Source of the DNA: Nanobdellota archaeon
GTDB lineage: Archaea; Nanobdellota; Nanobdellia; Parvarchaeales; Parvarchaeaceae
Direction of reading: 5' to 3'
Length of the DNA stretch: 54,850 nt
Assembly (NCBI GenBank): GCA_021802105.1
Contig: JAKAAW010000003.1
Coordinates: forward strand, 1-54,850
Both the position numbers and the translations under genes were made by a program. Below, piece after piece: positions 1 through 54,850 of the stretch. The notes under the pieces were generated by a model. That model saw nothing but the letters and a program-made list of their open reading frames with translations. It was not told where the DNA came from and searched no databases. The first letter of the stretch is position 1; each line of letters begins with the position of its first letter.

Positions 1-318
1 ACGATGAGGTAAGATTGATTTTAGTTATGTTTATAGAGTAACCTGTGGAATCTCCTATTGATACTGTGAAGCTGGTGTTGCCTAGGCATTCAGCCTGCAC
101 GCTCCCTAACCCGCTGAAGCCGGTTATAGTCGCCGATATGCTTGACGATGGGGAGAATATCCCAAAAGAGTATAATACTGCCGCAACTATGACTATGATA
201 AGGATGGCCCAGCCATACGTCATCATGTACTCCAGTGCAGACTGGGATCTTTTGTTAGCTAGAATTTTTCTGTCTGTCTGTCTGTCTGTCTGTTATATAT
301 AGGGAGATGCAAAGGCAT
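1..318 (-). CDS. Class III (archaeal type IV pilin-like) signal-peptide surface protein, 5' part; continues past the window start. The cassette start codon ATG(318) is out of frame with the mature part
   Basis: The minus-strand frame (codon starts 250, 247, ...) reads ..NKRSQSALEYMMTYGWAILIIVIVAAVLYSFGIFSPSSSISATITGFSGLGSVQAECLGNTSFTVSIGDSTGYSINITKINLTSS. This is a basic leader, a QSALEY cleavage-type motif and a hydrophobic helix, nearly identical to the N-terminus of the ORF at 27976..29154. ATG at 318 matches the paralog's start, but the (ACAG)6 tract shifts it out of frame. Confidence 0.6.
270..293. repeat. Perfect tetranucleotide microsatellite, (CTGT)6 on plus = (ACAG)6 on the coding minus strand
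   Basis: Read directly: ctgt x6 at 270-273 ... 290-293. This is consistent with the LSVCLSVC stretch in the plus-strand ORF 45..302. Confidence 0.98.
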
Positions 319-341
319 GATTTATATTTGGCTTTAGATGA

Positions 342-348
342 ATTTAAA
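342..348 (-). promoter_or_regulatory. TATA-like box TTTAAAT (minus strand), 23 nt upstream of ATG(318)
   Basis: The same heptamer is conserved in all three cassette copies (342..348, 2043..2049, 29180..29186), 23-25 nt upstream of the conserved ATG. This spacing is typical of archaeal leaderless promoters. Confidence 0.5.
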
Positions 349-394
349 CCTTGTCTTACGGCTTCCTGTTTGCTTGGACTCCGGCTTGCTAGGT

Positions 395-1678
395 TCAAAG
401 TTTGAGGAGCCATTTCCACAGCGGGATGAACCTTATCTTCTTGCCTTTGACTTTCTCCTCGGCTTCGTAGTCCCAGGTTATCACCAAAAGATTGTTGCAG
501 CGAAGTTCTTCAGAAGCGACTAAAAGATTGTCGATTTCTCTGTCAGCGATTTTATTTCCGCTCGAGGTATAAGTCACTTGTATAAGTTCAGTTATCTTAG
601 ATCCTTGTTTTACGACAAAGTCGATTTCTCTTTGTTTATAGTCCCTCCAATAATAAATTTTACTAGTTTTGCCCAGCCGCCTAATCAGCTCAATAAACGC
701 TATATTTTCCATTATATTGCTTTTTTCGTTTAAAGGATTATTAGAAGCAGCGGCCGCCAAAGCGTGATCTACCGCGTAAATTTTCTTTGGCGATCTTATA
801 ATTTCTGCTTTAGAACTTGAATAATTATCTACGGTAAACAGGAGATAGGCGTTTTCTAAATAGGATAAAAACAATTTCGCCGTGTTTGGGCTGCCCAGAT
901 TAAAAACCTTTTGTAATTTAGAAAACGACGCGTTCTTTCCATATAATCCGACAGCGTACATGGCAAACTCTTCAAATCTTTTTGTGTTTCTTATTTCATA
1001 CCTACGCAGGATGTCCCTGTTTATAATGTCCCTCAGATACGCATATATCAAGTCTTTCCTGTCTCTAAGTATGACCTCTGGAAACCCTCCATATTCAATA
1101 TATTTTTCAAATTTAGTTCGTATGGCTGCCAAACCCCAGCTTGTGTAAGGTTCCACATCTCCAGCGAATTCTCTAAAGGACATGGGAAATTCTTCAAACA
1201 AAACATTTCTTCCAGTAAGCGCGGCAGAAACGTCCGATTTTATTAAGCTGCTGTTGCTCCCGGTGACAGATATCCTTATGTCTTCGAATTCCAACATTCG
1301 ATTTACCCATTTTTCCCAGTTCTCCACGTTTTGTATCTCGTCTAAAAAAACATATATTCTTCCTTTCGGCATATATAACTGTAGGTAAGCCTGATACAAA
1401 CGCTCGAAATCACTGACTTCAAACGAAATTAATCTTTCATCCTCAAAATTTACGTAAAGTATATTGTCTTGGTTGACATTGTTTTCCAATAAAAACCGCA
1501 TTGTTTGAAAAAGAAGAGTAGATTTTCCGCACCTTCTCACCCCTGTCAGAATTATCGCTTCCTTAAATTTTACGTGTTCTTCTATGTCGTTTAGTAAATC
1601 TCTTTTTACGCCCTCTTCCCGCCTAAGTATAGCTTCCTTCTGCGTTTTGATTATAAGCTTTAATGCTTCTACTTCCAT
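395..1678 (-). CDS. AAA+ ATPase of the AAA_14/DUF4143 type (COG1373-like)
   Basis: 427 aa with an ATG start. It has a Walker A motif GVRRCGKSTLL and a Walker B-like motif IYVFLDEIQ. The C-terminal half has the layout I associate with DUF4143 proteins. Confidence 0.75.
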   Translation of the reverse strand: MEVEALKLIIKTQKEAILRREEGVKRDLLNDIEEHVKFKEAIILTGVRRCGKSTLLFQTMRFLLENNVNQDNILYVNFEDERLISFEVSDFERLYQAYLQLYMPKGRIYVFLDEIQNVENWEKWVNRMLEFEDIRISVTGSNSSLIKSDVSAALTGRNVLFEEFPMSFREFAGDVEPYTSWGLAAIRTKFEKYIEYGGFPEVILRDRKDLIYAYLRDIINRDILRRYEIRNTKRFEEFAMYAVGLYGKNASFSKLQKVFNLGSPNTAKLFLSYLENAYLLFTVDNYSSSKAEIIRSPKKIYAVDHALAAAASNNPLNEKSNIMENIAFIELIRRLGKTSKIYYWRDYKQREIDFVVKQGSKITELIQVTYTSSGNKIADREIDNLLVASEELRCNNLLVITWDYEAEEKVKGKKIRFIPLWKWLLKL

Positions 1679-1918: not shown

Positions 1919-2017
1919 CTAGCGAGATGTAGAATGTATTTGTTTGATAGCAGACTGTGATCTTTTGTGGATCAGTGGCTCCTTCCGTCTGCCGTTTGTA
2001 TGTATGTGCAAGGGCAT
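1919..2017 (-). pseudogene. Orphan 32-codon fragment of the pilin-like cassette: the leader only, then unrelated sequence and a stop
   Basis: The minus strand reads ATG CCC TTG CAC ..., giving MPLHIHTNGRRKEPLIHKRSQSA and then IKQIHSTSR*. The first 23 codons match 29154..29086 (MPLHIHTNGRRKELLIHKRSQSA). Homology ends exactly at the predicted signal-peptidase site. Confidence 0.55.
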
Positions 2018-2075
2018 ATAATTGGTATTTGGCTTTGGACGGATTTAAACTTTGCTTCCAGGCTTCCTGTTTGCT
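1950..2075 (-). repeat. Copy B (partial, ~126 nt) of the cassette: upstream block, TATA box, ATG and leader only
   Basis: 1950..2075 aligns with 29087..29212 with only a few mismatches. It also aligns with 315..377, which is more diverged. Confidence 0.9.
2043..2049 (-). promoter_or_regulatory. TATA-like box TTTAAAT of cassette copy B, 25 nt upstream of ATG(2017)
   Basis: The heptamer and spacing are conserved as in copies A and C. Confidence 0.4.
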
Positions 2076-4642: not shown

Positions 4643-6928
4643 TCAAAACAAGACTTTATACCGGTTTAGGAGATCCTTAGTACGCTCTAGTTTTTTCATG
4701 TACATTGACCTCTCCTCATCGTTTTTGGCGTAAGCAAGCTTTCTTTCAAGGTACTGCACCCCTGCCAATCTCTCAACACTGGAACCTCCAGAGTGCCTGA
4801 GTCTGTTTTCTAGGGCTTCGTTGGGAACCATCTCGAATACTATGTATCCTGTTCCTATTTCAGGGTTTGAGGGTACTTTGAGAGATATGTAACCTTGTGG
4901 TGAAGGCTCTTTCCCTATCTTGTTGCTCTCAAAAGTAGTGTAGTCCTGGAACGCCTGTGATCCTATCCCTACAAGTGCATTCATTTTCCCATTGCACATC
5001 TTATTAGTTAGAGATAGATGTGGCCTGTGCTCATCTCCTTTGTATTGTATCACCGCTGGGCTGGTTGTTCGCGTGGGCCGCTCTGACAGTGCCCTGCCTC
5101 CATCCATTCCTCTTATAAAAATACTGTGTTGCATACCGGCAGGGTAAGGTCCTATATGCACGGTTTCGCGCCTTAACATCATCCTTTCTGGATATATGAC
5201 ATTCGCACCGTTCGCCTCTAAGATAGCTCCAAGAGCTTCTGCTTCGTGAAGGTTGTTTGCTGCTTTCTCTACGTGGTTTCCGTTAAGATTATAGAACGCT
5301 TTGAAACCGATATCGGTGAGCTCTTTAAGGAATATAGCGCTCTTGTTCAACTGATCCCCAAGATTTATTATAGGCTCTCCATACACCATCTCCCTTACTC
5401 TTCTCACCATTCTATCATAGGAGATATCCCTTTCCGTCTTGTATAGATCACGTATAACATCCCCATACTGCATTTTTTGGGGGTCTTGTATATCTCCTCT
5501 CATAATCTTGTCTACTGCCCCCTGCAGCATGTCTCCCCCTAATATGGTATACCTCTTGTCTTTGTTTATCCCATCATGTTTTATGTCTTCTAGCAGGGCT
5601 TCGAGAAGTTCGTATTCAGTGTAACCTCCTTCAGGATTGTAACTTGACGCGCCTATGTGGGTGTCGCTTATCCCGTATATCTTTATCATATCTTTTTCGA
5701 GTTCCTTCGGGTTTACCCCTTCTTTAAGGGTCCTGTAATTTATCACTCTTGTCTGTGTTCTACCGTCCTTCATTACCGTGAACATTGTTATACCGCTGTA
5801 AAGGTCACTTCTTTTGACGTCTTTCGTGACATTTCCGGAGGACTTCTTCTTTCTAAGGACAGAGTCGTCGTGCAGAGGAGATACATGCAAAAAATGCGCA
5901 ACTTTGCTCGGTGTCTCTGACTCAGTGTCAGTGTTATATTTTATGGCAGTGTAATACGTTCTTGCTTCATGTCCCCATATATAGACATCCGCCAGCCTTC
6001 CTTCACGCCAGTCCCTATTGGCCTTTTCTATAGCCCGTCTCTCACCATTCAATAGGGGCTCCGGCTCCTTTATTCCGCCATAAATATCTATGTTTGCAGT
6101 GGCGTTTATAGCAGGGGATACTGAGAATTCCACCCCATTTACTTTTAGTCTAACGTCTTCTATGGTTTTTATTATATTGGCACTGTACACCGTTTCGTCT
6201 TTTTTCTTGTAAGACAGGAACGTATCAAGCACTTCTTCCTTGTATATCTTGTTGGCTATATCCACTATCCCGTCCTCATCAAGGTTTCTCCATGCAGACG
6301 CATCTATGTTCTGGGATTTCAAGTGCTGTATAATTTCTGGGTCTAAATCTCTAAGTACAGTGTCAAGATCATCGTCGTCTTTATTCTCATGAGACTGCTT
6401 GTTTATATTAGAAGATCTCTTATGGGATTTTAACAGTTGTTTTATTCTGTCGCCGACATTCGCATAGTCTTTTGGACCATATATCATCGAGATGGGGATG
6501 TTTTTCTCTGCAGCCGCTTCTATTATAGGTCGCATCTCATACTTAGCAAGCAGTGTGGCATCCTCTAGCGTATCCACCGAGTTGCTCCCACTGTTCTTTC
6601 CTTTTATCGCCTTGTGTACCCTTGCTCCATACCTCCCCTTTATATCATCCTCTAGCATGGCTAGGGAACTTTTGTCGCTTCTGCTGTTGCTGTTAAGCGC
6701 ATTTAGAGGATATCTGTACGCACCTCCTAACATTATTATCGCGTCTATCTTATACGGGGAACTTTTTATGAACTGGCCGACATTGTAAAGAACATCCGGA
6801 TCGCTTAGCTTTGTGCTTAGAGCTATATTGGAGAGAACAAGAACGTTTGCTTTGGGTTCGGAATCAAGGTTGTACTCCGAACTTATTTCGCTGTTTAAAA
6901 GCAACTCCTCTAAGTTTTCTTTCATCAT
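4643..6928 (-). CDS. Large two-domain calcineurin-like metallophosphoesterase: an N-terminal degenerate domain plus a C-terminal domain with intact metal-binding motifs
   Basis: 761 aa. The C-terminal half has YGISDTHIG (DxH), ILGGDMLQG (GD), NGNHVE (GNH) and GDEHRPH. The N-terminal half has the same strand pattern but lacks the ligands (VLVLSNIAL, IIMLGGAY, IYGPKDY, IWGHEA). Confidence 0.55.
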   Translation of the reverse strand: MMKENLEELLLNSEISSEYNLDSEPKANVLVLSNIALSTKLSDPDVLYNVGQFIKSSPYKIDAIIMLGGAYRYPLNALNSNSRSDKSSLAMLEDDIKGRYGARVHKAIKGKNSGSNSVDTLEDATLLAKYEMRPIIEAAAEKNIPISMIYGPKDYANVGDRIKQLLKSHKRSSNINKQSHENKDDDDLDTVLRDLDPEIIQHLKSQNIDASAWRNLDEDGIVDIANKIYKEEVLDTFLSYKKKDETVYSANIIKTIEDVRLKVNGVEFSVSPAINATANIDIYGGIKEPEPLLNGERRAIEKANRDWREGRLADVYIWGHEARTYYTAIKYNTDTESETPSKVAHFLHVSPLHDDSVLRKKKSSGNVTKDVKRSDLYSGITMFTVMKDGRTQTRVINYRTLKEGVNPKELEKDMIKIYGISDTHIGASSYNPEGGYTEYELLEALLEDIKHDGINKDKRYTILGGDMLQGAVDKIMRGDIQDPQKMQYGDVIRDLYKTERDISYDRMVRRVREMVYGEPIINLGDQLNKSAIFLKELTDIGFKAFYNLNGNHVEKAANNLHEAEALGAILEANGANVIYPERMMLRRETVHIGPYPAGMQHSIFIRGMDGGRALSERPTRTTSPAVIQYKGDEHRPHLSLTNKMCNGKMNALVGIGSQAFQDYTTFESNKIGKEPSPQGYISLKVPSNPEIGTGYIVFEMVPNEALENRLRHSGGSSVERLAGVQYLERKLAYAKNDEERSMYMKKLERTKDLLNRYKVLF

Positions 6929-27975: not shown

Positions 27976-29154
27976 TCAAGGCGCCTGATAATTGCTAGTG
28001 TACACTATGTTCGCCTGGAGCCCATTATTTCCATTGCCACTGTAATCTTCTGCCGTGCCATTCAAAGGCCACCATCCAAATAAAGTGTTTGATACCTGCT
28101 TTGACATTAAGCCACTGTTGTATATAGAAATTATTTGTGTATGATTTAGCGCGCTTTTGTAAACTTGAATCCCTGACATCATGACATCCGTAACGTGACC
28201 TCCGTCGGGAGCTCCTATAAAAACACTGTCCGAGCCGGCACTTGTACCGGAATATCCACCTCCTGCACTTTCAGCATTGTTGAAATAAAGAGAAGCTGTC
28301 GTATCAGAGGCGTTATATACCCCCACAACAAGATACCAAGAGGTCATGCTTGGTGTAAATGAGTTAGGCTGTGCGCCACCATGGACAAATTCTAAGGGCC
28401 ACGGGCCGGATGTAGTGTAGCCTCCGTTAAAACGCAGATCTCCGCAATGGTAGCCGCACGCAGATGAGTTGCCTAAGGATATCGGATCGAACTGAGGATT
28501 CTGTGTGTCATAAGTTTCTTTTCCTACATTTACCCATGCAACCAGAGAAACGCTGCTTGAGTTGGGAAAATTAAGATTGGATTTTATAATACTTATTATG
28601 GAACTTGTTGTAAAAAATGCTACATACAAAGGTTGAACTGTCAAAGATACTCTACCTGAAACTGTTCCGCTTGACAAGTAAGGGCCTGAAAACGTCTGTC
28701 CGGGTTCTGTGTAGTTAACGCTGACAGATACTGAAAATTTTGAGCCTGCTCTAGGGCATATATTTGACAGGGAGAAGGTGTAAGTCCCGCCTGGCACTAT
28801 CTCCGGATTGGGATCAACCGTTGAGTTTCCAGAGAAAGAAACCGTGTTGCTGTTCCCTGTTGCGGTTATCTTAGTTATGTTTATCGTATTCCCTATATTG
28901 TTACCGAGTTGGATCCTGAGGACCCCATTTGAATAACACTGAGCTGTCACACTACCTAAGTTTGAGAAGCCGGTTATAGTCGCCGATATGCTTGACGATG
29001 GGGAGAATATCCCAAAAGAGTATAATACTGCCGCAACTATGACTATGATAAGGATGGCCCAGCCATAGGTCATCATGTACTCCAATGCAGACTGTGATCT
29101 TTTGTGGATCAGTAGCTCCTTCCGTCTGCCGTTTGTATGTATGTGCAAGGGCAT
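27976..29154 (-). CDS. Class III signal-peptide (pilin-like) surface protein with a C-terminal LamG/concanavalin-like domain
   Basis: 392 aa. The N-terminus is MPLHIHTNGRRKELLIHKRS-QSALEYMMTYGWAILIIVIVAAVLYSFG. A Ser/Thr/Asn-rich middle has several NxS/T sites. The C-terminal LamG-type signatures are SWYLVVGVY...LYFNN...VFIGA...IQVYKSALNHTQIISIYNSG and WWPLNGTAEDYSGNGNNG. Confidence 0.75.
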   Translation of the reverse strand: MPLHIHTNGRRKELLIHKRSQSALEYMMTYGWAILIIVIVAAVLYSFGIFSPSSSISATITGFSNLGSVTAQCYSNGVLRIQLGNNIGNTINITKITATGNSNTVSFSGNSTVDPNPEIVPGGTYTFSLSNICPRAGSKFSVSVSVNYTEPGQTFSGPYLSSGTVSGRVSLTVQPLYVAFFTTSSIISIIKSNLNFPNSSSVSLVAWVNVGKETYDTQNPQFDPISLGNSSACGYHCGDLRFNGGYTTSGPWPLEFVHGGAQPNSFTPSMTSWYLVVGVYNASDTTASLYFNNAESAGGGYSGTSAGSDSVFIGAPDGGHVTDVMMSGIQVYKSALNHTQIISIYNSGLMSKQVSNTLFGWWPLNGTAEDYSGNGNNGLQANIVYTSNYQAP

Positions 29155-29179
29155 ATAATTGGTATTTGGCTTTAGATGG

Positions 29180-29186
29180 ATTTAAA
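29180..29186 (-). promoter_or_regulatory. TATA-like box TTTAAAT, 25 nt upstream of ATG(29154)
   Basis: The element is conserved in all cassette copies. The spacing implies a leaderless mRNA. Confidence 0.5.
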
Positions 29187-29231
29187 CTTTGTCTTACGGC
29201 TTCCTGTTTGAGGGGACTCAAGCTTGCAGAT

Positions 29232-29291
29232 TCAAAGTTTGAGGAGCCATTTCCACAGCGGGACAAATCTTATCTTCTTGCCTTTGACTTC
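29232..29291 (-). pseudogene. Orphan 3'-terminal remnant (19 codons plus stop) of a DUF4143 ATPase gene
   Basis: The minus strand encodes EVKGKKIRFVPLWKWLLKL*, compared with the C-terminus KVKGKKIRFIPLWKWLLKL* of the intact ATPase (395..1678). There is no ATPase body upstream. Confidence 0.7.
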
Positions 29292-49283: not shown

Positions 49284-52200
49284 TTAAGAAGAGCATTTAA
49301 CATTCGTGCGCTTAATGCTAGAATAAGTATATTTTATATTAGTATTGCCACTGCCGGCTACTGCATTTCCTGAACTAGGATCTGGGGTGTAGTAATACTC
49401 ATAATATACACCTGACGTACTACAGTTGCTATATACTCCATTATACGCCTTGAAAGGGTAAGAGCTATCCTGCAAAGCAGATGAATCTATCTGCAATGAA
49501 CTCGTACTGCTACTGCCCACTGCTCCATCAAAAGTGACCGACCAGGAAAAAGAACCGGACGAAGAAGAACTAGATGGAAGTCCGGATTCCTGGAATGTAG
49601 TTATCGAATCTATAGTGCAAATTTTGCTGCTGGAAAATGAGATAGGGTTATTGGAGCTTCCAGACACGGCGTTGCCGGAGGAAGGAGATGGGGAGTAAGT
49701 CCACACATAATGCCCTCCCTCCCTCCAATTACCGCATGGAGCACCTTTAATCTTCAATGAAGGGACGTTGAAATTATAAGTCTTGCCATAACTGCTTGGG
49801 AACAGGTTTATATTTACTATATCAAGCTGAGGCGGGTAGCTGTTGTTGGTGGTAGTATTATATGTTAGGGACCACTTCGTGTTTTTCGGCAGACCATTCT
49901 CTAAGAAGGAAGTAGTCACGTTTTGCGTTAGAGCGAATTTAACCTTCACTGTGGCGCCTGCGTTTGTTTGCCCAAACGAAGGCGAAGCCGAATAGAAACT
50001 GTGGGGACTGTTTACGTTTGGCACGGAGAAATAGTACGAACCTGCGTCTGAGCTTATGCTTATATTGTTAGGAGAGCGCGCTGAGTATGTTGTCCCAGAA
50101 TAAACGACTTTCCACACGTCTCCGGGAGGTAGACCTGTTTCATTAAACACCGTAGTACAGTTAGTCTTTGCGCCGAAGACTATCTGCTTTGTGGTTCCTG
50201 CAGTCAGATTTCCAGAAGCAGGGTTTGGAGTGTATGTGGAAGTGCATGTTTGAGATGCCGATGAATTCACGAGTGTTGGCAGAGAGAAGCCGTGTTTTCC
50301 GCCAGGTGTCAAGAAGGATATTGAATTGGATGCAGACGTCTTAGTCACATTGTCGTAAGTCATCGTCCACGCTTTCCCTTGAGGCAGTCCATTTTCCGCA
50401 AAAGTGGTCGTCTTGAAATGATAGATGGATAAGTACGTGCCGAATTTTGAATCAACCTGATACACTGGTATGGGTATTATATTATAAGTCTTAGGTGAGA
50501 CCAGCAAAGTATAACTCACATTCCATAAGGTTGGTAGATTATAAGCCAGGTAGTACCTGGATGATGTAGTATAGGTCAGATTTCCCGGTGTCTGGTACAG
50601 ACAGTTGACTACATAGCCGTAAAGCACGTTGTTTATCGAATTGCACTCCTCATCGGATGTTAGGTTGACCGACCAGCCGTTTCCTCCGTGGTAAGTAGAT
50701 GTGAAAACCCTCGAATTACCATTAGTGCACACCGTGTTAAGGCCCGTGGCGCTGCCTGTCGTACCTAAAATGTTTACTGAAGGCGCAGATGTATTCCCTG
50801 TTTCGCTAATGCTGTAGAACTGCACCGAATGCAGACCCTGGCTAAGCGCACCTAAAGGCAAGTAAATGCCGCTAGAATAGGCTGGAGGCAGATTCTGACC
50901 CGAACATAGTTCTCCTTCTCCGAGCGAGAACAAATTGTCACTAGGTAAGCCAGGTATGCAGTTTGCAGATGTGCCGCCGGTGAACAGACTCAAAGCATAG
51001 TCATAAACACTGCCATTTACGAAACCCGGAACACCGCTTACACCGAAGTATGGGTTCTGGAGCATCAGTATATTAAGTGTATCGAATGGGAATATTGATG
51101 ACTTCTTTATGGCACTTGAGCCAAGGCTTGATAACAAAATGTTAGTGGGCAATAGATGTGTGATTATGTTTGTAAATTCATTTTGAGACACTGAGAGACC
51201 CGACATGTACTGATCTTTTATCTGAGTGTGGGAACCGCCTTGTGGTATTGATATGTTAGTCGGAAAGGTGGAGTTAATCACACCTATGCCTATCCCAAAC
51301 CCTACGGCTGAGGAACTGTTTGAATACTGCAGAGCGTACGATGAGCTTGTCTCATTCGTTATGCCGAAGTGATCTGCTGTACAGCCGTTCGATACAGTCG
51401 GTTGTGCGTATCCTTTTCCAGAGAAAGGTTTACAGCTTGTCGGCACGGCTCCATTGCTGCTGTTGCCGTTCTCTTGTGAGTAAGAGGTGTAGGATGTCAC
51501 TTCTGTATAGTTAGCCATATAGCATGAAGGGTCTGTGTTTATATTCGCCGCAAAAAGAGTTGCCGGCGCAGATACACACGATTCTATAGTACCGGAATAG
51601 CCTGATGGACAACTGTAAGTTTCACTGTAAGAACTTCCTTTGACTGTCTGACTAGCCGTAGGCGGTGTGATGTTGATAGAATCTCTGCCTATCTCGCAAC
51701 CGCCAACCTCTGGCAAAAAGGTTGTTTTTGATATTATAGGATTGTATATACCTTTGGTAAAATGCGTCCAGCTGGTGGCTATCCCTGCGTTTAGATTGGC
51801 TCCTATAAGGTTCGTAAAGTTACCGCAAGTATTATTGGCAAGCGGGCCGGTCGGGTTTGATTGGGAAGCTGAGATGGAGTTCATTGTCAGATTCATAGAT
51901 TGGCTTATTATATACGGGTATGATGAACTGCTGTAAGAGATGCTGCACTCTGTCACTATTTTCGACTCGTTGATGCTTTGCGCTATGCTAGTGAGAACGA
52001 CAGACGAAGAGCAGTCTGTTCCAGCATTGCCGTTGCTGCATGAAATTGTCGTGTTCTTGTATGATTTCACTCCTGACGAACTGTTAGCGGCATATACCCA
52101 GCCGTTGCAGTTAAAAAGAGCGTCAATCCCGTTTATCGGTGAAGTTGAATTTTCGTACACTTTAGGGATAGTATATGTGGTAGTGCCGGTGGTGCTGGCA

Positions 52201-54850
52201 GAAGAGATTGGTGAAGTTATGGCGAACGCAATGGTGCCATCTGTAGGCATGCAAGAAAATGTGGTACTACCCAGACTGCCTAGGTAGCATCCGCCGCCTA
52301 TCTCGCCGCCGAGTGGAAGTGCTTCTATGTTGCTGTAACTGCCAGAGGATGGAACTGTAGGTACAGGTTTGGAACAGTAAGTCATATCTTGTATAGTGTA
52401 ATTCGCAGGGCAGGAGTTTATGAGAGATATGCCGGATAAACTGTAGACAATTCCTCCTGGACTAGCGAATTGGTCGTTTATTATAGCAGTATAGTTGGCA
52501 AGGTATCTCTCCCCGATGTTGGTAGGATTGTAATCGACCCATGTGCCGTTTACATAGAGCCTAGGCCATTTAAGAATGTACAGTTTCTCTCCGTTCGATA
52601 GCTGTTGTACCCGCGAAGTAGTCGTTACATTCTTTGTCAGGCTGCAGTCGGCGTATAGGGTCGCGTTTATGGCTTTGCCATTAGAACTCGCTGTGCTTAT
52701 GTTGTATATGCCCGGTCTATAAGTCAAGTTCACCGTTTCCCCACCCTTTGTTGCGTAGCTGTTGTTGACTGCTCCTGCCTGTGAGGTATAGGTAGGTCTG
52801 CCGCCGAAAACACAATACACTTTGTTATAGTTGCCAGAGGCGTTGTAAGTGGAATACGGCAGGGTGGTTCCACTAGAATTGATTACGTTTACATTGGCGT
52901 ATATGTTAGGCATGCAAGACATGTTAAGATTTACTCCTGTGTAGTTCGATAGGCCAACCTGTTGTTTCCCTACGTACACTTTTGAGAAGGAGCCGAAGCC
53001 TACGAACTTTGGAGGGGGCACGTAAAAACTCTGGCCACTGCTAGTTTTTACGTATGAGAAATTTGATATGAGTTCATCCGTGACACTGAACGCGACAGCT
53101 GAGCCAGTTGATGAGATTGTGTCAGTTATAACGTTTGAGTTCTTAAAGAAGCAGTAGGTGCTGGATACTGTCTGGGACGGGTTCGTTACCTGATAAAGAT
53201 TGTTGGCGTTGTAATTTATACCACTAAAGTTGCTCTCTTTCCACACGACCCGCTGGGAAGCGGAATACGAAACTAAGAAACAGTCACTTATTGGTCCACT
53301 ATATACCTCCGACACGCTCGCCTGCGATGCAGAGACGTTGTTTACTAGAAGGTCACCTATGTTCGCCCCGTTACTCAGGTGGAAGCCGCTTAAACACGGA
53401 CCGGACGATGCTTTGCAGTTACCTAAAAGCGTTGCGTTGTAGCTATCTGTGGAGAATGCCACGCTGTATGGAGTAGCGGATACGTTTGCCCAATTACTGG
53501 AATATGTTATCGGTGAGGGATTTTCACCTGCAAATATCATGTAAGAATTACCGTTGTACGCTTCGCTCTTGTTGGCTATTATAGAGTAGGTGCACGTACC
53601 ACTAAGAATTGAGTTTACCTGATATGGCAGTTCTGCCATAGGGTAAGGCGAGTTTCCTAGAACCCTGATTCCATTACAGGATCCTTGTTCTGGCAGGGAG
53701 AACGAAAGTGGCATTGGCCCTGCTGATTCGCTGCTGAAGGTCAGGTTGTAAGCTATAGAGGGAGTATCCGACACGACTACCGGGGCGATGAGCAGAAAAT
53801 CGCCAGGCAATGTTCTTGTTACATTGAGAAGAGCCGCCGTCTTGATCACAGTCTGTCCGTTACTAATCTCTGCGAATGAAAGCGTGTAGTTTCCTCTGGT
53901 CTTTAGGACGCAACCGCTATAGTTCAGAATTCCATTGGTTACGACTTTATCCACCAGGCATGATGTGGGATTGCCTGACGAGTCAAATGAGTAGATAGTC
54001 ACATTCTGCGAGTTTAGGGGCACACCGCTATCTGTTACCATCAATGATTTACCGCTTAGGTTCTGGATTGTTATGCCGAGACCCACATCTCCACTTATTA
54101 GGTACTTATTGTTCGATGCGTTCGTGAATACGGCTCTGACCCCTGTGAACGGCTTCTGCACTCTACAAAAGATAGTACCATTTGGAGTATTATAGTATCC
54201 CTGGCTTATTTCCGATGCGGATGACAGATTGTTAGGCTGGGTGTTCAACGTGTCAACTATGTTGCAGTTGAAAGGGGTATCGTTCGCATAATAAAGGTAA
54301 AGTTTTGAATTTGTGAGTATGGTCGTGCGTGGTGGCAATCCGAATACCAAAGTCAACCCATTCTTAGCATATGAAGATAAGTTTATGTTAGCGGTGTACA
54401 CACTGTTGACTTTAGAGTCGGACGAAAGATTTGAAGCTATAAAGTACACTCCATTTGATACTGGATTGGACATATTTATCGCAGAACTATTATAAACTTC
54501 CACATAGAAAGGTCCATACTGGGAACTCACTATCAAGTTATCGTTCAATGAAGATGAGGCTGAAATGCACGATGAACTTGCCACAGATATCGCCCCGGAT
54601 CCGTTTGTAGTCATGGCTGTGTTACCACAGACTGGAGTTCCATCTTTCAGAAGCGACAGCGTTACTTTTTCATGAGCAAACGTTGAGGCGTTTACCAAAG
54701 TTCTAGTTCCGACTATTTTTATAACTGACTTGTCGGCGCGTATGTTACCAGTAAATATGGAAGCACCGTATGCAGAAGACGGGATTGTCGCAATGGATAG
54801 CGATGGCTGCACGGAGAGTGAATTGTACGTATCTGACAGGCCACTCGTCA
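49284..54850 (-). CDS. Giant secreted/surface protein (>1854 aa), with the 5' end outside the window
   Basis: The frame stays open from the GTG at 54812 to the window edge (..TSGLSDTYNSLS-VQPSLSIA..), and no signal peptide is visible, so the true start lies upstream. The composition is very Ser/Thr/Asn/Gly/Tyr-rich, there are dozens of NxS/T sequons, and scattered Cys pairs occur. Four tandem ~95-110-aa modules sit at the C-terminus. Confidence 0.8.
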   Translation of the reverse strand, partial: TSGLSDTYNSLSVQPSLSIATIPSSAYGASIFTGNIRADKSVIKIVGTRTLVNASTFAHEKVTLSLLKDGTPVCGNTAMTTNGSGAISVASSSCISASSSLNDNLIVSSQYGPFYVEVYNSSAINMSNPVSNGVYFIASNLSSDSKVNSVYTANINLSSYAKNGLTLVFGLPPRTTILTNSKLYLYYANDTPFNCNIVDTLNTQPNNLSSASEISQGYYNTPNGTIFCRVQKPFTGVRAVFTNASNNKYLISGDVGLGITIQNLSGKSLMVTDSGVPLNSQNVTIYSFDSSGNPTSCLVDKVVTNGILNYSGCVLKTRGNYTLSFAEISNGQTVIKTAALLNVTRTLPGDFLLIAPVVVSDTPSIAYNLTFSSESAGPMPLSFSLPEQGSCNGIRVLGNSPYPMAELPYQVNSILSGTCTYSIIANKSEAYNGNSYMIFAGENPSPITYSSNWANVSATPYSVAFSTDSYNATLLGNCKASSGPCLSGFHLSNGANIGDLLVNNVSASQASVSEVYSGPISDCFLVSYSASQRVVWKESNFSGINYNANNLYQVTNPSQTVSSTYCFFKNSNVITDTISSTGSAVAFSVTDELISNFSYVKTSSGQSFYVPPPKFVGFGSFSKVYVGKQQVGLSNYTGVNLNMSCMPNIYANVNVINSSGTTLPYSTYNASGNYNKVYCVFGGRPTYTSQAGAVNNSYATKGGETVNLTYRPGIYNISTASSNGKAINATLYADCSLTKNVTTTSRVQQLSNGEKLYILKWPRLYVNGTWVDYNPTNIGERYLANYTAIINDQFASPGGIVYSLSGISLINSCPANYTIQDMTYCSKPVPTVPSSGSYSNIEALPLGGEIGGGCYLGSLGSTTFSCMPTDGTIAFAITSPISSASTTGTTTYTIPKVYENSTSPINGIDALFNCNGWVYAANSSSGVKSYKNTTISCSNGNAGTDCSSSVVLTSIAQSINESKIVTECSISYSSSSYPYIISQSMNLTMNSISASQSNPTGPLANNTCGNFTNLIGANLNAGIATSWTHFTKGIYNPIISKTTFLPEVGGCEIGRDSINITPPTASQTVKGSSYSETYSCPSGYSGTIESCVSAPATLFAANINTDPSCYMANYTEVTSYTSYSQENGNSSNGAVPTSCKPFSGKGYAQPTVSNGCTADHFGITNETSSSYALQYSNSSSAVGFGIGIGVINSTFPTNISIPQGGSHTQIKDQYMSGLSVSQNEFTNIITHLLPTNILLSSLGSSAIKKSSIFPFDTLNILMLQNPYFGVSGVPGFVNGSVYDYALSLFTGGTSANCIPGLPSDNLFSLGEGELCSGQNLPPAYSSGIYLPLGALSQGLHSVQFYSISETGNTSAPSVNILGTTGSATGLNTVCTNGNSRVFTSTYHGGNGWSVNLTSDEECNSINNVLYGYVVNCLYQTPGNLTYTTSSRYYLAYNLPTLWNVSYTLLVSPKTYNIIPIPVYQVDSKFGTYLSIYHFKTTTFAENGLPQGKAWTMTYDNVTKTSASNSISFLTPGGKHGFSLPTLVNSSASQTCTSTYTPNPASGNLTAGTTKQIVFGAKTNCTTVFNETGLPPGDVWKVVYSGTTYSARSPNNISISSDAGSYYFSVPNVNSPHSFYSASPSFGQTNAGATVKVKFALTQNVTTSFLENGLPKNTKWSLTYNTTTNNSYPPQLDIVNINLFPSSYGKTYNFNVPSLKIKGAPCGNWREGGHYVWTYSPSPSSGNAVSGSSNNPISFSSSKICTIDSITTFQESGLPSSSSSSGSFSWSVTFDGAVGSSSTSSLQIDSSALQDSSYPFKAYNGVYSNCSTSGVYYEYYYTPDPSSGNAVAGSGNTNIKYTYSSIKRTNVKCSS
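49287..50411 (-). repeat. Four tandem protein-level modules (FxExGLP ... W.V.Y ... Y.F.VP ... P.P.SG..AG) at the C-terminus of the giant protein
   Basis: The module starts are TTFAENGLPQGKAWTMTYDN.., TVFNETGLPPGDVWKVVYSG.., TSFLENGLPKNTKWSLTYNT.. and TTFQESGLPSSSSSSGSFSWSVTFDG... They are diverged at the DNA level. Confidence 0.75.

Follow-up and report, generated by a model that had tools for sequence, protein, structure and literature searches.

A perfect (ACAG)6 tract in the leader, most likely translated, of a gene for a prepilin-type surface lectin is probably a slipped-strand (contingency) switch, judging from comparison of the gene with its many relatives in a multigene family of Parvarchaeota. 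The tract lies at positions 270..293, minus strand, of a 54,850-nucleotide stretch of DNA (hereafter the window) from the chromosome of a Parvarchaeota archaeon (ARMAN-like, DPANN). Seen across the family, the tracts are a well-supported candidate for a multi-locus slipped-strand phase-variation system in this group: the sequences show their anatomy and reading frames, both ON and OFF alleles in different paralogs and species, OFF genes that are intact apart from the frame, and simple sequence repeats (SSRs) placed exclusively in these leaders. The rest of the window is an ordinary chromosome region which carries an RNA polymerase operon with a split rpoB and genes for Mre11/Rad50, RNase HII, RtcB/archease, LonB and SerRS. 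Searched for within the window, genes for a prepilin peptidase or for the pilus assembly ATPase/TadC were not found.

How is the focal locus built? Along the minus strand, a TATA-like box (TTTAAAT, 342..348, read from 348 to 342) is followed after 23 nt, a leaderless-type geometry, by ATG CCT TTG CAT CTC CCT ATA TAT A, by the (ACAG)6 tract (293..270), by AAAAATTCTAGCTAACAAAAGATCC and by CAG TCT GCA CTG GAG TAC ATG ATG ACG, encoding QSALEYMMT. The tract has the ATG 25 nt upstream of it and the QSALEY codons 25 nt downstream. TRF calls it at 269..293 with 100% matches and reports no second tetranucleotide array in the window; this one tetranucleotide repeat of at least four units compares with none in 200 first-order Markov simulations of the window. 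At six units the leader start codon (316..318, minus strand) is out of frame with the mature part: its distance to the Q codon is 74 nt (frame 2). Translation of the ATG frame gives a truncated ORF of 19 codons, MPLHLPIYNRQTDRQTEKF, and a TAG stop (259..318, minus strand; the stop at 261..259). Directly after the tract, the short stretch TTCTAGCTAA (255..264, minus strand) holds one stop per wrong frame, TAG at 261..259 and TAA at 257..255, and equivalent pairs of TAG, TAA or TGA codons stand behind the tract in the relatives L008, L030, L054, L056 and L013. The frame of the mature protein is itself closed just upstream of the tract by a TAA (293..295, minus strand), and from this TAA to the Q codon it contains no ATG, GTG or TTG. 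It continues through codons K-R-S (245..253, minus strand), which are positions -3 to -1 of the predicted prepilin (class III) cleavage site, a motif common to homologues, into the mature protein start QSALEYMMTYGWAILIIVIVAAVLYSFGIF (1..244, minus strand; Q codon 244..242), which is open to the window edge. The focal gene runs off the window start, which is also the contig end, and 81 codons are all that can be seen of its mature part. Since A318 and A250 are 68 nt apart, seven or four units restore the frame. The box, the tract, the 19-codon frame, the TAA and the restoring unit numbers had all been put forward in the original prediction; re-read on the minus strand and with TRF, every one of its coordinates and frame statements holds, and an allele of exactly seven units, in frame, exists at a paralogous locus (P0121, see below).

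Is the tract translated? In 86 family genes that have no tract, TATA-like hexamers start between -32 and -27 from the in-frame ATG, with a sharp peak at -29, and at the focal ATG the TTTAAA hexamer starts at -30. The TATA-like box ends 22-23 nt before the ATG upstream of the tract in every tract gene, with any type of promoter. Over the window's own 43 genes the TATA spacing gives a weak signal only. Such a TATA-to-ATG geometry is expected of leaderless archaeal mRNAs. From the family-wide geometry it follows that the tract is most likely translated with ATG(318) as start, and transcription most likely begins at or next to this ATG, which would place the tract inside the translated sequence.

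The window holds an intact paralog of the focal gene without a tract (27976..29154, minus strand). Translation, Pfam (PF13385), AlphaFold and Foldseek describe a product in which a leader, MPLHIHTNGRRKELLIHKRS, and an N-terminal helix precede a beta domain and, last, a lectin-like LamG domain. The paralog opens with ATG CCC TTG CAC and so matches the first four focal codons, as had been claimed, and the three differences across the signal peptide (TCC/TCA, CTG/TTG, ACG/ACC) are indeed synonymous. Both genes lie in a repeated module of ~340 nt (116..453, minus strand, in the focal copy; 29290..28966 in the paralog) that begins with the final ~60 nt of an ATPase gene and runs through promoter and leader into the conserved N-terminus; on comparison of 453..116 with 29290..28966 the copies diverge only at leader codons 5-17. 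The ATPase gene directly upstream of the focal gene (395..1678, minus strand; AAA_14/DUF4143 by Pfam) is context and not a component of the switch, and it served to anchor the locus in other assemblies. An orphan third copy of promoter and leader, of the paralog type, is found at 1950..2074 (minus strand, ATG at 2017) and is cut right after the Q-S-A codons. In L120, which is syntenic to this orphan copy, a complete family gene occupies the place and the ATPase is absent.

What do these genes encode? A tblastn search with the paralog returned 283 matches, nearly all in MAGs of Parvarchaeota, 'Nanoarchaeota' and ARMAN-4/5; spread over a limited set of MAGs, such a number means many family copies per genome. 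The family architecture is an invariant prepilin-type N-terminus (KRS followed by QSALEYMMTYGW) and a hydrophobic helix, then a LamG or DUF2341 lectin-like domain. The mature N-terminus, QSALEYMMTYGWAILIIVIVA.., hardly varies over 240 homologues; about 230 of them have [KR][KR]?[SGA] immediately before QSALEY, and the leader ahead of the basic motif measures from 4 to 47 residues. The sequence pattern of this N-terminus is that of an archaeal prepilin (class III) signal, with Q at +1, E at +5 and then the hydrophobic helix; the focal gene has the basic leader end, KRS before QSALEYMMTYGWAILIIVIVAAVLY and the E at +5. Curated models of pilins and class III proteins all stay below threshold for the family N-terminus: Pfam gives no match to it even at E <=10, and the NCBIfam models BasC (E 1.1e-3) and UpsA (E 0.034) score far below their cut-offs. 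The AlphaFold model of the paralog (pLDDT 80) has residues 23-46 as a helix, followed by a beta and a jelly-roll domain. For the jelly-roll domain Foldseek matched pentraxin, sialidase-lectin and carbohydrate-binding domains, in a search that was dominated by the LamG domain and did not probe the pilin-like part. Pfam identifies Laminin_G_3 (PF13385) in the paralog at E 1.4e-9 (38.7 bits, cut-off 27.6) and DUF2341 in the subfamily closest to the focal gene. The earlier description of the product as pilin-like therefore stands for its prepilin-type N-terminus and falls short for the remainder, a large lectin-like domain to which this N-terminus is fused.

All family genes in the fetched loci were scanned for repeats and frames. 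About 20 loci, drawn from three or more species-level genomes, carry (ACAG)n at the same leader position; their n ranges between 2 and 20, and roughly 9 are in frame against 12 out of frame. The tract belongs to a conserved module, TATATAT(T/A), (ACAG)n, A4-6 T2-3 CTAG.TAAC, ...AAA.A.CC and the CAGTC of QSALEY, which stands behind several different promoters. A protein search with the predicted seven-unit product retrieved P0121, a protein of 486 aa from the sister MAG GCA_027370095.1, whose leader before QSALEY is exactly MPLHLPIYNRQTDRQTDRKILANKRS. Its DNA (L111) has n=7; leader and tract flanks are identical to those of the focal gene, a few positions differ in the promoter and among the first mature codons, and the gene lies directly downstream of an AAA_14/DUF4143 ATPase gene, as the focal gene does. 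A second gene on the same contig has n=8 with a 27-nt flank and is in frame; in L118 (ERZ27237515) six units are combined with that 27-nt flank, which leaves the gene out of frame, in the wrong frame opposite to that of the focal gene. On near-identical leaders, paralogs and related genomes give n=6 OFF, 6 OFF, 7 ON and 8 ON. Relatives with n=2 are in frame in the third gene of L111, in L113 and in L120. In L112 (P0122) n=2 is combined with A5 and the gene is out of frame. Of the out-of-frame alleles most are in frame 2, and those of L091 and L118 are in frame 1. In the genome FK2.bin89 tracts of 3, 4, 7 and 17 units are in frame and tracts of 9, 10, 10, 10, 13 and 20 units out of frame; QH1S170213_bin_296 has tracts of 3, 4, 4, 4, 6, 6 and 6 units. 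A flank-anchored tract pattern, run over 185,579 species genomes, occurred only in these two genomes (16 stretches), plus one chance match. In JGI metagenome contigs the tract-plus-flank pattern gave 13 matches, all of them chance and none a family member, and the exact promoter pattern GTTTAAATYCATCTAAAGCCAAATA had no match in genome contigs.

Apart from the frame, the complete OFF genes are intact. Eight of 105 distinct family genes have no in-frame ATG before QSALEY, and all eight carry an ACAG tract of at least three units; set against the other genes, this is 8 of 19 with a tract and 0 of 86 without (Fisher p=2.7e-7, over loci that are partly non-independent, L001 and L003, for instance, being one locus). 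Past the Q codon, the reading frame of complete OFF genes is open for 371-479 codons. Of 29 residues invariant over 69 family members, OFF genes of LamG type retain 28-29. In ~686 kb of Parvarchaeota loci, 19 of 19 SSRs (at least 6 dinucleotide, 5 trinucleotide, 4 tetranucleotide or 4 pentanucleotide units) are ACAG tracts no more than 120 nt upstream of QSALEY, and outside the family leaders no SSR was found in this DNA. Several marks of a contingency locus are present: a perfect repeat in the 5' coding sequence whose unit is not a multiple of three, length alleles in and out of frame, intact OFF alleles, and SSRs confined to one class of genes. A plain pseudogene had been expected to show damage in the mature region of out-of-frame relatives, and the complete OFF genes are otherwise intact. 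With tracts at the same position in some twenty genes and SSRs placed nowhere else, the reading of the tract as an ON/OFF switch rather than as decay, which had been drawn from the one locus, gains support.

How would such a switch work? Transcription would start at or beside ATG(318), 23 nt past the TATA box, and give a leaderless mRNA, whose (ACAG)n the ribosome would translate through. As the unit is four nucleotides long, one unit gained or lost in replication shifts the frame. With six units translation would halt after 19 codons, the stops behind the tract would catch both wrong frames and no prepilin would be made (OFF). With seven or four units the leader MPLHLPIYN(RQTD)nRKILANKRS would be joined to QSALEY... 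(ON). Prepilin peptidase would then remove the leader, so that extra TDRQ repeats are proposed to cost nothing. The model presumes that slippage takes place within populations and is reversible. With several to about ten such genes per genome and an independent tract in each, a population could display differing subsets of lectin-tipped pilin-like proteins, plausibly for attachment to a host or for evasion of viruses or host defences.

Would the same lengths arise with no switch at all? The tract may be an incidental, unstable microsatellite in the dispensable, cleaved leader of a redundant family; OFF copies would then be young pseudogenes, to be lost or overwritten by gene conversion, and there would be no selected, reversible switching. 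We consider this unlikely, but of the observations several agree with it. Unit number is constant between near-identical strains at three loci: n=6 at the focal locus in all four assemblies (the window, L001, L002 and L003, one of them an NCBI MAG) with identical flanks, n=13 in both L056 and L114, and n=20 in both L008 and L121, which are 99.93% identical, these being consensus assemblies that record the majority allele only, from datasets that may share samples. An ATPase-anchored search for an ON allele of the focal locus returned only six-unit copies among the matches listed. The ON fraction, about 9 of 21, is near the one third expected from random tract lengths. Lengths do differ between corresponding loci, since for the gene after an identical 437-aa ATPase L111 has eight units and L113 two, and for the SerRS-linked locus the window has six and L120 two. 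At syntenic or orthologous loci, alleles with n=2 and with n of at least 6 also differ by linked substitutions in the flank (CGTTTCCC..TATACA versus CATCTCCC..TATATA), and in some cases the whole leader module may therefore have been exchanged instead of slipping in situ. One cluster of mature proteins at 90% identity has at least five different leaders, and with leader modules swapped among mature proteins at least 90% identical, conversion could repair dead copies. In L115 a leader frameshift (A5 to A4) that is unrelated to the tract has turned a gene OFF (P0207, called from MMTYGW). What speaks against an incidental microsatellite is that every complete OFF gene is intact and has its invariant residues, even behind tracts of 10-20 units that needed time to grow; that the SSRs, found nowhere else in the ~686 kb, sit at one homologous site in several species and behind several promoters; and that conserved stops close both wrong frames just behind the tract.

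A different objection is that the tract does not gate synthesis. Mature protein could come from OFF alleles by a downstream start, by reinitiation after the short upstream ORF, from an internal promoter at TATATAT or by frameshifting, and the tract would only modulate the level. We judge this improbable, yet in QH1S170213_bin_296 it has a concrete form: every tract gene there has an in-frame ATG six codons before Q, downstream of the tract, which would give a typical short leader, MLTKKG, directly before Q, and the stop of the upstream ORF overlaps this ATG (CTATGTTAA). The tract genes of this genome may accordingly be expressed whatever their unit number. An A-to-G change in L112 has produced an ATG that immediately precedes the tract (MTDRKILANKRS), the conserved TATATAT(T/A) abuts every tract, and a formal A-AAT-TTC heptamer is present at the tract end in L056. 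In the window and in FK2.bin89, by contrast, there is no ATG, GTG or TTG between tract and QSALEY save one TTG in L008, and a start at the next ATG (MMTYGW) would remove the cleavage site. The window's GAA AAA TTC TAG is no X-XXY-YYZ slippery site, and since both wrong frames are represented among the OFF alleles, one recoding event does not account for all of them. Programmed -1 ribosomal frameshifting was considered and set aside on these two grounds, and a single wrong frame common to all OFF alleles, which would have hinted at recoding, is ruled out by L091 and L118. Could the tract length or the frameshift be an artefact of assembly or sequencing at a contig end induced by the repeat? All contigs with the focal locus end 50-950 nt from the ATPase gene, and the assemblies disagree on the variable domain. 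The mature start is identical in L002, and in L001 the ORF is open for 265 codons and diverges ~205 nt after the Q codon; independent assemblies have variable domains of two kinds from about this point on, which may be assembly ambiguity across the repeat. Twenty-six variable amino acids of the focal-locus ORF match P0194 at 100%. The closest full-length relatives of the focal gene are of the DUF2341 type, and its own C-terminal domain lies outside the window. An artefact in the tract itself is nevertheless very improbable: four assemblies give the same six-unit tract and flanks, only 25 nt separate the tract from the QSALEY codons, on its upstream side it is tied to unique sequence, and many other tract loci are in the interior of contigs. 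A slipped-strand switch in the leader remains the reading that we favour.

Gene callers tend to mis-start genes of this family. They choose MMTYGW for a gene that bears a tract and is out of frame (P0198), a TTG just after the tract (P0009) or a far-upstream ATG (P0256). Proteins called from MMTYGW were tried as OFF candidates, and three of them (P0223, P0064 and P0194) turned out to be in frame and mis-started by the gene caller. As a practical warning, mis-started gene calls conceal the ON or OFF state.

In its mechanism the closest analogue is the opa system of Neisseria, in which (CTCTT)n lies in the signal-peptide coding region of a multicopy family of surface adhesins; the tetranucleotide loci of Haemophilus influenzae are also close, and there is no homology to either. 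Phase variation of Opa involves 11 phase-variable opa genes (PMC11868660). The likenesses to opa are an SSR unit that is not a multiple of three inside the coding sequence of a cleaved leader or signal peptide, numerous paralogs in each genome that all have a tract of their own, in- and out-of-frame copies side by side, products of surface-adhesin type (predicted here) and gene conversion among paralogs. The differences are the domain of life (Archaea, a DPANN episymbiont), the tetranucleotide unit, a prepilin (class III) instead of a Sec signal, a probably leaderless mRNA and non-homologous proteins; the archaeal system is so far a candidate. The tetranucleotide contingency loci of H. influenzae were reportedly treated by De Bolle et al. 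in 2000. Examples are lic1 with its (CAAT)n and mod with its (AGTC)n (PMC2651432). As in the archaeal genes, their tracts are perfect, have ~6-20+ units and lie near the 5' ends of ORFs, tract length sets the frame, and long SSRs are largely confined to such genes. Unlike them, the H. influenzae loci are lipopolysaccharide-biosynthesis and restriction-modification genes of a bacterial pathogen with measured switching rates, where the archaeal case has comparative evidence.

On the side of the protein, the relevant known group is that of the archaeal type IV pilin-like (class III) proteins, such as the pilin UpsA and the bindosome protein BasC of Sulfolobales and the EppA substrates of Methanococcus with their QxSxE-type N-terminus; on this group PMC10134863 cites Makarova et al. 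2016. The present family resembles them in the basic leader ending in [KR][SGA], in Q at +1 and E at +5, in a hydrophobic helix of ~24 residues, in the beta-rich domain and in its weak NCBIfam matches to BasC and UpsA. It differs in a leader that varies from 4 to 47 aa, in the large C-terminal LamG or DUF2341 domain and in reaching the threshold of no curated model. To our knowledge, phase variation has not been described for the families of UpsA, BasC or the EppA substrates. Full-text literature searches for slipped-strand phase variation of archaeal or DPANN surface or pilin-like proteins returned no description of it. Surveys of homopolymers and SSRs that included archaea, 18 species in one (PMC2831843) and 2 in the other (PMC3315296), proposed that repeats near the 5' ends of genes can reversibly inactivate them; both deal with statistical trends for short homopolymers only and describe no archaeal surface multigene family with long tetranucleotide tracts. 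In a 2025 review the archaeal distribution of phase variation is left to future work (PMC11868660), and a preprint mentions, as an aside, that archaea are known to have contingency loci (PMC12633550). The Parvarchaeota tracts are accordingly a candidate for a switch of known kind, with both the domain of life and the protein family being new for it.

Taken one step further, the tracts could form a true 'phasome', in which about ten independent (ACAG)n switches per ~1-Mb genome make a stochastic choice of the prepilin-type lectins on display, a bet-hedging for host-archaeon attachment or for escape from viruses, and it would be the first slipped-strand contingency system documented in Archaea; on this wider reading our judgement is evenly balanced. 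Slipped-strand phase variation is commonly regarded as a hallmark of host-adapted bacteria. If the switch is real, obligate archaeal episymbionts would use the bet-hedging logic of pathogens, and the pilin-like lectins that are likeliest to mediate contact between DPANN archaea and their hosts would be identified. The number of units per read would then be a countable metagenomic marker of surface switching in uncultured archaea.

Which wrong frame do the out-of-frame tract alleles occupy? Ten lie in frame 2, where one more ACAG unit is needed to join the leader ATG to the mature frame, against only two in frame 1 (loci L091 and L118). This excess falls short of significance (chi-square p about 0.07), and the loci behind it are not independent. 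Could such alleles still be translated? All tract genes of QH1S170213_bin_296 (L019, L069, L086, L087, L090 and L096) carry a second in-frame ATG six codons 5' of the Q codon, the first codon of the mature protein (MLTKKG preceding Q). The commonest wrong frame in this bin has six or three units, and there the TAA of the upstream ORF overlaps the second ATG (CTATGTTAA), an arrangement suggestive of termination-reinitiation. With three units, about 25 nt separate the pre-tract TATATATT box from the second ATG.

Leaders and promoters of the family vary in other ways as well. A tract-less family gene (L115, JGI 3300038731) is out of frame by a change from A5 to A4 about 60 nt 5' of the Q codon, so that its leader reads MPFKALNKRI followed by a stop, the same stretch in relatives being MPFKALNKKDLTLLTKRRS; the ORF from the Q codon onwards is intact over 474 codons. 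At L112 (GCA_027370135.1), TATATGA in place of TATATAA supplies the mature frame with an ATG immediately 5' of (ACAG)2 (protein P0122, MTDRKILANKRS), and the TATA-linked ATG of this allele is out of frame. The promoter type found with the short leader MSLTHKS has a CT-rich spacer, usually (CT)3-4, between its TATA box (CTATTTAT) and the ATG. The short-leader gene at L116 (GCA_021804005.1) has (CT)7 just 5' of the ATG and a shorter overall spacing; other loci listed for this promoter are L021, L025 and L051. These spacer differences could be a second type of repeat variation, acting on promoter spacing.

An AAA_14/DUF4143 ATPase gene, or a ~60-nt 3' remnant of one, repeatedly lies immediately upstream of family genes (window 395..1678 and 29269..29290; L030, L111 with two genes, L112, L113 and L075). 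The mutual identity of these ATPases is only 32-40%, and the repeated module starts inside the 3' end of the ATPase gene. In the sister MAG GCA_027370095.1, an AbiEi/AbiEii toxin-antitoxin-like pair (L111, 926..2450) adjoins the cassette of ATPase and n=7 pilin-like gene. Elsewhere in the window, two large minus-strand ORFs of 761 aa (4643..6928) and 1842 aa (49284..54812) have no Pfam match; the longer, whose first part is rich in Ser and Thr, may encode another surface protein.

How are leaders and mature domains combined? Mature proteins of the P0001 cluster (members P0258-P0262) are at least 90% identical, yet their leaders are of at least five different kinds. The reverse is seen too: one and the same context of serS, ATPase and six-unit leader has two different variable domains attached, depending on the assembly, and L001 and the window part after about 205 nt of mature sequence. 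These combinations point to either frequent module exchange or else chimeric assembly across the ~340-nt repeat.

A third promoter and leader copy, of the type of the intact tract-less paralog, sits as an orphan between SerRS and the ATPase gene (1950..2074, minus strand, ATG at 2017) and ends exactly after the Q-S-A codons. At the syntenic position, a JGI contig (L120) instead carries an entire family gene, with two units and in frame, and lacks the ATPase. From this comparison, it looks as if recombination within the leader module either inserted or deleted the ATPase along with one such module.
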